A DNA stretch of 33,740 bases from sequence record LC768498.2; one strand, 5' to 3'. The stretch is from Klebsiella phage phiKp_30. The position numbers and the translations under genes are program-made. The notes below the pieces were generated by a model. That model saw nothing but the letters and a program-made list of their open reading frames with translations. It made no database searches and was not told where the DNA came from. Numbering within the stretch: position 1 is the first letter of the stretch; the number at the start of each line of letters is the position of its first letter. This document shows, piece by piece, positions 917 through 1,377 of the stretch.

Positions 917-942
917 ATGCCCTCCATAGTAACCATGAAACA

Positions 943-971
943 ATAATACGACATGTACTTTTAGAATGCAA
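943..971 (-). promoter_or_regulatory. PR-like promoter: -35 TTGCAT, a 17-bp spacer, -10 TATTAT. The spacer and -10 carry an operator-like motif AAAGTACATGTCGTATTAT.
   Basis: Sigma70-like hexamers with 17-bp spacing sit upstream of the cro-like gene. A near-identical 19-mer is also present in the PL-like promoter. Confidence 0.5.
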
Positions 972-1091
972 GCAAAAAATACATCTTTTGCATGGATGGT
1001 TTTAGTACAGAGCGCAATAATAAGGGTATGAAAATGTATGAACTGGCTAGATCCAGAATGAAAGAGCTCGGCATAACTCAAGAGAAGTCAC

Positions 1092-1138
1092 CAAGATACG
1101 CCGTAAACCCTCGCCCAGTGCGGGCGGGGAGCAGTCAC
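1092..1138 (+). repeat. Copy 1 of a triplicated roughly 47-nt GC-rich hairpin element (CAAGATACGCCGTAAACCCTCGCCC-loop-GGGCGGGGAGCAGTCAC), lying between the divergent PR and PL promoters.
   Basis: The repeat is read directly. The loop is AGTGC here and GACA in the other copies, while the stem is preserved. Confidence 0.85.
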
Positions 1139-1149
1139 AACATTTTGTG

Positions 1150-1178
1150 TTGACTCGATAAAGTACATATCGTACTAT
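1150..1178 (+). promoter_or_regulatory. PL-like promoter: -35 TTGACT, a 17-bp spacer, -10 TACTAT. The spacer carries the palindrome AGTACATATCGTACT.
   Basis: Consensus-like hexamers lie upstream of nutL and N. It shares AAAGTACATRTCGTAYTAT with PR. Confidence 0.55.
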
Positions 1179-1224
1179 TTAGCCATCAGCAGGAAGCTGG
1201 AAGCCAAACGGAAAAGATTGGCAG

Positions 1225-1258
1225 GCTCTTTAACTTCGATGGGGCGCTGACAAAGCGC
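1225..1258 (+). promoter_or_regulatory. nutL: nutL: boxA GCTCTTTAAC (1225..1234) and boxB GCGCTGACAAAGCGC (1244..1258).
   Basis: As I recall it, boxB is identical to the P22 nut boxB GCGCUGACAAAGCGC and boxA matches the P22/rrn boxA UGCUCUUUAACA. The site lies between PL and the N gene. Confidence 0.7.
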
Positions 1259-1377
1259 AAACAGATACCAAACGAGATGGGTTTGGCGGTGATGTGAATT
1301 GCAGCTGCAACGACAGCAACCAGAAGATCAGCATCTGGCGCATCACCACCAAAGCCATTTCACATGAGGAAAACATC

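Follow-up and report, generated by a model that had tools for sequence, protein, structure and literature searches.

Klebsiella phage phiKp_30, a probable lytic descendant of temperate P22-like phages with insertion-sequence miniatures at its rearrangement joints

The early control region of phage P22 and other lambdoid phages, immC (PL/OL-c2/cI-OR/PR-cro), comprises two early promoters that diverge and have palindromic operators in common, a cro-type helix-turn-helix (HTH) gene after PR, an N antiterminator with a P22-type arginine-rich motif, the nutL and nutR sites (each with a boxA and a boxB), and cIII and kil downstream. P22-like phages carry a second region, immI (arc-ant-mnt), located between gene 16 and the tailspike gene. 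Lytic derivatives generated by deletion within an immunity region include mycobacteriophage D29 relative to L5 and the clear-plaque c mutants of lambda and P22; they keep the temperate architecture and the early circuit, and their operators are present, the repressor having been lost. This report concerns the genome of Klebsiella phage phiKp_30 (sequence record LC768498.2), analysed as one stretch of 33,740 nucleotides, hereafter the window, and in particular its immC-type region and a short hairpin element that stands in place of most of the repressor gene. All the immC features listed above are found in this genome, whereas cI is cut to 34 codons, the distance between the two promoters is 179 bp and not about 840 bp, and cII is deleted. 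The window probably represents a complete P22-like (Huey/Lederbergvirus-type) coliphage genome of temperate ancestry in which lysogeny was lost through several separate lesions (rough probability, 0.8).

Unlike D29 and the lambda and P22 c mutants, this single genome has lost three or four lysogeny functions (cI, cII, int/xis/attP, and mnt), and a miniature insertion sequence is found at two of its joints. Phages that became lytic by losing lysogeny genes are a known category; what is unusual is the miniature at these joints, and phage genomes rarely contain insertion-sequence material. The contribution of the present analysis is a reconstruction of the lesions at the level of single bases, together with the identification of the hairpin repeat as a miniature of the IS200/IS605 family. 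The genome would offer a traceable natural case of the passage from a temperate P22-like coliphage to an obligately lytic one, with lesions mapped to the base against temperate relatives, which is of use in judging phage lifestyle from sequence and in choosing phages for therapy. The missing repressor and integrase would here signify decay and not a new control strategy.

The immunity region and the loss of cI and cII

The immunity region is 96–97% identical to that of phage Louie and of a family of Escherichia coli prophages; the coordinates of its features are collected in Table 1. The initial annotation had placed PL and PR about 180 bp apart and had assigned to them a shared 19-mer with a palindrome, all of which has been confirmed. 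The −35 hexamers are separated by 179 bp, and the operator 19-mer reads AAAGTACATATCGTACTAT at 1159–1177 (+) and AAAGTACATGTCGTATTAT at 961–943 (−). The palindrome AGTAC-N5-GTAYT gives eight hits (four sites on two strands, with at most one mismatch) against 1.7 expected, a number never reached by any shuffle, and the two mismatch-free sites overlap the −10 hexamers of PL and PR. PR is not called by a simple promoter scan because its −35 hexamer agrees with the consensus at three of six positions; its location is homologous to that of PR in Louie, and the PR/OR region is 97% identical to Louie. N and both nut sites, claimed previously, were recovered by a Pfam match and by boxA/boxB patterns, respectively. 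The boxB of nutL is presumably identical to the left boxB of P22, and nutR is located in a block 97% identical to an E. coli O25:NM prophage (L014). Furthermore, a cro-like HTH gene that had escaped the initial annotation is the first gene of the PR operon and shares 97% amino acid identity with the Louie gene in the cro position. Divergent promoters with the same operator, cro after PR, and N with its nut sites thus define a region of the immC type, in which an intact cI/c2 repressor gene between PL and PR was not found.

The earlier statement that no cI-type open reading frame (ORF) lies between the promoters holds for an intact repressor, but the first 34 codons of cI are still there and are fused to a copy of the hairpin element, referred to as E1, the reading frame running on as a 53-aa ORF to position 1153. 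Neither the recognition helix of the HTH nor any part of the C-terminal domain is included in the remnant, which has no Pfam match. The extent of the lesion was determined by alignment with two temperate relatives. In Louie, the segments corresponding to window positions 701–1088 and 1139–1194 match at 96–97%, and the 706 bp between them are replaced by 50 bp in the phage. The prophage L014, which carries intact cII and a LexA-family cI, matches in three blocks at 95–98% (window 25–606, 603–1088, and 1139–1577 corresponding to 1023–1609, 1851–2342, and 3050–3488 of L014), and 707 bp of L014, i.e., cI codons 35–231 and the spacer between cI and PL, correspond to the same 50 bp. The lesion accordingly begins at codon 35 and ends 11 nt before the PL −35 hexamer, with E1 at the joint. 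The lesion in cII is of a different form: a clean 241-bp deletion at a 4-nt TCCA microhomology (603–606), by which the start and about 78 codons were lost. The flanks of the remnants are 95–100% identical to the intact genes of E. coli prophages and of Louie. A hairpin with a T tract, which we take to resemble the oop terminator of lambda, is retained although its antisense target cII has been deleted. A sar-like RNA proposed in the initial annotation could not be verified, Rfam giving no match.

Lysogeny genes were sought in the whole window. The Pfam search covered every ORF of at least 150 aa in six frames and most ORFs of 100–150 aa, and it detected no Phage_integrase, Resolvase, Recombinase, or Peptidase_S24 domain. 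The tblastn search of the whole genome was performed with the integrases of Huey and EC.P3, the excisionase of Huey, the cI proteins of Huey, Louie, and L014, C2 of JEP4, and the cII proteins of the relatives; it returned no match for int, xis, or C2, and its matches to lysogeny genes were remnants of cI, cII, and Mnt only. The claim that neither a repressor nor an integrase is encoded elsewhere in the genome was therefore upheld: an integrase or other maintenance system and a maintenance repressor were not found in the window, and cII is represented by a stump. Lysogeny through a non-homologous repressor or integration system that escaped the hidden Markov models, for instance one encoded by small ORFs or by the Rha/ANT genes, is very unlikely. 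Four ORFs (1689–1982, 5273–6001, 28691–29083, and 6395–6604) have no Pfam match and two Rha-family regulators are present, but all ORFs of recombinase size are assigned to structural, replication, or lysis families, ordinary temperate relatives that have cI and int carry the unannotated ORFs as well, and the stumps of cI, cII, and mnt indicate loss and not replacement.

The conserved operators bear on the type of lytic derivative. The half-sites AGTAC and GTAYT of OR1 and OL1 are perfect, the differences from Louie and L014 being confined to the N5 spacer, and the OR region is 97% identical to Louie. These observations argue against a vir-type mutant, in which operator mutations would make PL and PR insensitive to repressor. 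Such a reading could draw on the position of E1, which was inserted at a TTAG overlapping what is probably a half-site of OL2 (parental sequence AG/AACATTTTGTATT, the slash marking the point of insertion), and on GTGTT in the window where the parents have GTATT; it is extremely unlikely, as the decisive lesion is the loss of the repressor gene itself. Judged from its sequence, the phage is a clear-plaque-type deletion derivative and not a vir-type operator mutant such as lambda-vir.

Table 1. Coordinates of the control sites, genes, remnants, and hairpin elements in the 33,740-nt window.
Feature	Position	Strand	Basis or remark
PL (TTGACT-17-TACTAT)	1150–1178	+	Promoter scan; 96% identical to Louie PL
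OL1 (AGTACATATCGTACT)	1162–1176	+	Operator in PL
PR (TTGCAT-17-TATTAT)	−35 971–966; −10 948–943	−	Read from sequence
OR1 (AGTACATGTCGTATT)	945–959		Overlaps PR −10
nutL	boxA GCTCTTTAA 1225–1233; boxB GCGCTGACAAAGCGC 1244–1258	+	Pattern search
nutR	boxA CGCTCTTTA 690–682; boxB ACCGCCGACAACGCGGT 672–656	−	Pattern search
N antiterminator, 102 aa	1378–1686	+	Pfam N_peptide, E=6.5e-37
cro-like HTH gene, 71 aa	916–701	−	Pfam HTH_3, E=4e-12
oop-like hairpin with T tract, terminator-like	563–591	+	Terminator scan; 94% identical to Louie
cI remnant, codons 1–34 of a 231-aa LexA-family (S24) repressor	992–1087	+	tblastn with Louie and L014 cI, residues 1–34, 94% identity
cII remnant, last ~20 of 99 codons	542–606	−	tblastn, residues 78–99 only
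E1, 47 nt, loop AGTGC	1092–1138	+	At the cI deletion
E2, 46 nt, loop GACA	5117–5162	+	3′ of TTAG (5113–5116)
immI-type fragment, 1,062 bp (1.06 kb)	5163–6224	+	Sequence match; between E2 and E3
mnt-like gene without its first 19 codons	6225–6031	−	Pfam Arc profile positions 17–49 only; tblastn, residues 20–84 of 84
E3, 46 nt, identical to E2	6225–6270	+	3′ of native TTAG inside mnt
Small gene, first 18 codons, cut by E3	6325–6271	−	Intact 79-aa homologue after the tailspike gene in prophage L040
LexA box (TACTGTTTTTATATACAGTA), perfect	6342–6361	−	Pattern search

Genome closure, the integration module, and the immI fragment

The last 85 bases of the window are identical to the first 85, and both ends lie within one 21-bp tandem repeat. 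When this overlap is collapsed, the sequence forms a circle of 33,655 bp (about 33.66 kb), and an ORF of 279 aa for a replication initiator becomes intact across the closure; it is colinear with a 258-aa prophage homologue, the sole difference being the number of GGAGAAR repeats. Because the circle closes through an intact replication gene, no gene is hidden beyond the ends of the window, and the possibility raised earlier that the window is a part of a larger prophage does not apply. The 21-bp repeat itself (CCCGGGCAGCTCCTGCCCCAC, positions 1–85 and 33614–33740) is located inside the replication-initiator gene, where it encodes the GGAGAAR repeats; there are approximately six units in the phage and three in the prophage homologue, and the contig was cut within the repeat, which is possibly an iteron or origin region.

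The nearest phages are the temperate P22-like coliphages Huey, Sf101, vB_EcoP-720R6, and CUS-3 (genomes of 38–46 kb), which cover 48–55% of the first 25 kb at 94–96% identity, and the gene order is syntenic with these relatives apart from the rearranged sites. The Pfam search recovered a full set of P22-type morphogenesis, lysis, and replication genes. The families include P22-type morphogenesis proteins, terminase, lysis proteins, Q, Nin proteins, Erf (Rad52), SSB, exonuclease, and Abc2, and in addition a toprim primase-helicase, two Rha-family proteins, the cro-like HTH protein, and a truncated Arc-family protein. The lytic circuit thereby retained comprises PL and PR with their shared operators, cro, N, nutL, nutR, cIII, kil, and Q. 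The phage EC.P3 (33.4 kb) was considered as a similarly reduced genome and was set aside, since it has a 392-aa ORF in the integrase position and an unrelated layout. Phage phiHS3 (bioRxiv 10.64898/2026.05.19.726188), a temperate phage with an integration site near ybhC, is likewise distinct from the present one.

The integration module was located by comparison with the syntenic phage Huey, in which the tailspike gene is followed by int, xis, and the ea genes and then by abc2, endonuclease, ssb, and erf. The PL operon of the present phage reads erf, ssb, exonuclease, abc2, DUF2737, and 17 codons of a DUF2591/NinX-like ORF, which is truncated there by a second copy of the hairpin element (E2). 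The distal part of the PL operon and the int/xis/attP segment are missing, and a cassette bracketed by E2 and a third copy (E3) stands at the place of ea-xis-int-attP in Huey. To the right of E3 are the first 18 codons of a small gene, its LexA box, a 69-aa ORF, and the tailspike gene; the intact 79-aa homologue of the small gene in prophage L040 is an SOS-controlled small gene.

The cassette has 99.6% identity with the ant-distal portion of an immI-type region from a prophage of E. coli EN-1077 and 88–97% identity with phage JEP4. It contains the last 22 nt of ant, a gene of 242 aa (5273–6001, +), a terminator, and a truncated mnt-like gene that lacks the DNA-binding N-terminal beta-strand. 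As in the immI of P22-like phages, the mnt-like gene belongs to the Arc family; unlike that region, the cassette is fragmentary, without arc and ant, and it is located after the tailspike gene and not between gene 16 and the tailspike gene. Its orientation is inverted relative to EN-1077 and JEP4 as well as to the tailspike gene. The ant-like gene reported in the initial annotation probably corresponds to the 242-aa gene, which has no Pfam match and whose relatives are annotated as KilA or hypothetical, the true Rha+ANT gene being that at 27753–28463. At the position where P22 has immI, a 383-bp gap separates the gene-16-like ejection protein gene from the tailspike gene, and the sole candidate gene in it is a 46-aa lipoprotein-like ORF at 8614–8754 (−) that begins with MKKGVMVGCLCVLLAGC.

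Comparison with the closest temperate relatives has thus placed each lesion against Louie, L014, or Huey, and the proposal that the phage is a recently virulent derivative of a temperate lineage gains support from the stumps of cI, cII, and mnt, from the missing int/xis/attP segment of Huey, and from the closed circle. Without cI, cII, int, xis, and attP and with a truncated mnt, lysogeny would be neither established nor maintained. With no repressor, both early promoters would fire on entry and development would always be lytic; N would antiterminate at the nut sites, and Cro would tune PL and PR through the same operators. Since the operators are conserved, a homoimmune resident prophage should still repress the phage, and homoimmune lysogens should exclude it. 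At a query coverage of 80% or more, at least 46 complete E. coli genomes carry the matching immunity region together with an intact cI.

The same two observations, conserved operators and widespread matching cI genes, could be taken to mean that the phage persists as a defective or satellite-type element through the cI (and Int) of a resident related prophage. The initial annotation had offered control in trans by a heteroimmune prophage as an alternative; of that proposal, the expected action of a homoimmune repressor remains, but the lifestyle would not be sustainable. No attP, int, xis, partition, or plasmid-maintenance genes were found in the window, so that a repressed genome would not be heritable; the full set of lytic genes is intact, and decay after a loss of function accounts better than dependence for three separate lesions in lysogeny genes. 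Persistence under trans control is hence most unlikely.

The hairpin element and the rearrangement joints

The three copies of the hairpin element share the pattern CAAGATACGCCGTAAACCCTCGCCC-loop-GGGCGGGGAGCAGTCAC. The insertion sequence ISEc46, annotated with tnpA and tnpB in E. coli PCN033, begins with CGAAAAACGCCGTAAACCCTCGCCCAATGCGGGCGGGGA directly after TTAG at its left end and terminates in CCTCGCCCGACAGGGCGGGGAGCAGTCAC at its right end. The corresponding empty site in K-12 reads TTAG/ATGATG, which demonstrates that ISEc46 inserts 3′ of TTAG without target duplication, as expected for the family. Briefly, the element consists of 16 nt from the 5′ edge of the ISEc46 left end, one hairpin, and 9 nt from the 3′ edge of the right end: the 5′ 16 nt and the 5′ arm of the hairpin match the left end, and the 3′ arm and AGCAGTCAC match the right end. 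At the level of sequence, the hairpin element is thereby shown to be a protein-less miniature of 46–47 nt of the IS200/IS605-family ISEc46. It folds as expected as single-stranded DNA, into a single hairpin; it encodes no protein itself, and no tnpA or tnpB was detected in the window by Pfam. Like ISEc46, the miniature sits 3′ of TTAG without target duplication, to which E2 and E3 conform and E1 (TCAC) is an exception; unlike ISEc46, it has one hairpin in place of two ends and is too short to encode a guide RNA. Protein-less derivatives of IS200/IS605-type elements have been described as PATEs (PMC10055086). The described PATEs have separate left-end and right-end hairpins, whereas one hairpin is present here, so that the element is a variant and not a typical PATE.

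Pattern scans revealed sharply bordered copies of the miniature between unrelated flanking sequences at 10 IMG/VR loci, in one Providencia phage, at 12 genome loci (Oceanospirillum, Nitrincola, Aliidiomarina, Serratia, Phaseolibacter, and others), and on seven metagenome contigs. Across these contexts, the stem and its flanks are constant and the loop is variable, and TTAG lies immediately 5′ of the miniature in 22 of approximately 24 distinct contexts. The hairpin core is present in 765 of 5,426 complete E. coli genomes, and two of 50,697 phage records contain the element sequence; three copies in one phage of 33.7 kb are unusual. In other prophages, the miniature is likewise seen at module boundaries, between the last early-left gene and xis-int or between Q and holin (L005, L022, and L027 of Phaseolibacter flectens; L006–L013, lambdoid loci of IMG/VR). 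Other identities of the element were considered and discarded. An engineered scar (FRT, lox, or att) is ruled out by the natural occurrence of the element in many unrelated genomes; a known RNA family found no support in Rfam, which returned nothing at the gathering score and nothing relevant at E≤1; and a solitary CRISPR repeat, an integron attC site, a terminator, and a small ribozyme were dropped once the ISEc46 ends had been matched. A literature search for the element sequence itself returned nothing relevant.

A miniature is located at every large rearrangement joint. Each copy links two sequence contexts that lie apart in every relative, and of the six flanks at least three represent canonical target sites. 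The right flank of E1, AACATTTTG, directly follows a native TTAG in Louie and L014, 11 nt upstream of the PL −35 hexamer. Its left flank ends in GAGAAGTCAC, at the exact position where cI natively reads GAGAAGTTAG/CTGAAG. The right flank of E3 follows a native TTAG in the 5′ part of the LexA-box-controlled 79-aa gene of prophage L040.

These junctions suggest a route by which the joints may have arisen. A host TnpA, presumably acting in trans, would have placed miniatures at a number of TTAG sites; these would then have provided portable homology or substrates for TnpA, with loss of the DNA enclosed by two of them or with the capture of a cassette. Homologous recombination between copies is a possible route, as the phage encodes Erf and SSB. 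For E2 and E3, a deletion between direct copies in the DUF2591-like and the LexA-controlled genes would have removed the integration module in a first step, and in a second step a circular molecule of element plus cassette would have recombined into the remaining copy; this two-step model of deletion and recapture would fit all four junctions of E2 and E3. Transposition of E2, cassette, and E3 as a composite into one site is unsupported, the flanks not being contiguous in the relatives. In a broader form, the single-hairpin miniature would spread in phage genomes and act as a portable joint at which lysogeny modules are deleted and cassettes captured, a tentative idea that is more doubtful than probable. 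If the joints were made through miniatures in this manner, tiny insertion-sequence relics would constitute a mechanism of module loss and exchange in phage mosaicism, i.e., a transposon-driven route from a temperate to an obligately lytic phage and a driver of mosaic junctions.

Several observations weigh against the proposed history of lysogeny loss. The left junction of E1 (1088–1091) is TCAC and not TTAG, while native cI has TTAG at the same position; TCAC is the 3′ terminal tetranucleotide of the element itself, so that the left junction of E1 looks like a junction of a right end with a left end. The right flank of E2 follows TTCG in the parents. Both are left unexplained by simple insertion followed by recombination. 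Moreover, the miniature carries only the left-end-type guide region 5′ of the hairpin. No intermediate, with the element at these sites and its neighbours intact, was found in 5,426 complete E. coli genomes, IMG/VR, or a metagenome collection; in the E. coli genomes, the element was found neither beside PL nor inside mnt, the junction of the cI remnant with the element had no match in IMG/VR or the metagenome collection, and that of the cII deletion had none in IMG/VR. The order and mechanism of the events consequently constitute a model. That the phage probably grows only lytically is likewise deduced from gene content. Furthermore, E2 and E3 are identical in sequence, and repeat-induced misjoining could have occurred there.

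This last point leads to an assembly artefact, i.e., a chimeric contig or one in which a path through the 46-nt repeats was collapsed in a mixed population, int and other genes still being located between the copies. Such an artefact would also account for the joining, by E2 and E3 each, of contexts not contiguous in any relative, and the contig begins and ends in a tandem repeat. It is nevertheless unlikely. The deletion in cII involves no repeat, and the loop and left flank of E1 are unique, which is incompatible with a switch of path through E2 or E3. Usual reads and final k-mers exceed 46 nt in length; in the circle, the reading frame of the replication gene continues across the closure, and the gene order is otherwise syntenic. 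Loss of lysogeny by several separate lesions in a genuine, complete genome is therefore the preferred reading.

Further genes and repeats

The 968-aa ORF of the toprim primase-helicase (30053–32959, −) contains an intein-like insert with matches to Hom_end_hint and LAGLIDADG_3 (Pfam) at about residues 379–632, between the Toprim and AAA_25 parts. An exact duplication of 27 nt, representing the first nine codons of a YbcO-like gene, is found at 27727–27753 and 28672–28698, flanking the antirepressor-type gene with Rha and KilAC domains (27753–28463); the arrangement resembles a scar left in the nin region by the insertion of a moron. The second Rha-family gene, with Phage_pRha and ORF11CD3 domains (24003–24545, −), is located between the lysis genes and terminase. 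Finally, the 69-aa ORF after the tailspike gene and the 3′ end of the tailspike gene (6375–6696) are 83–85% identical to Klebsiella phages, which suggests that a receptor-binding module has been exchanged across genera.

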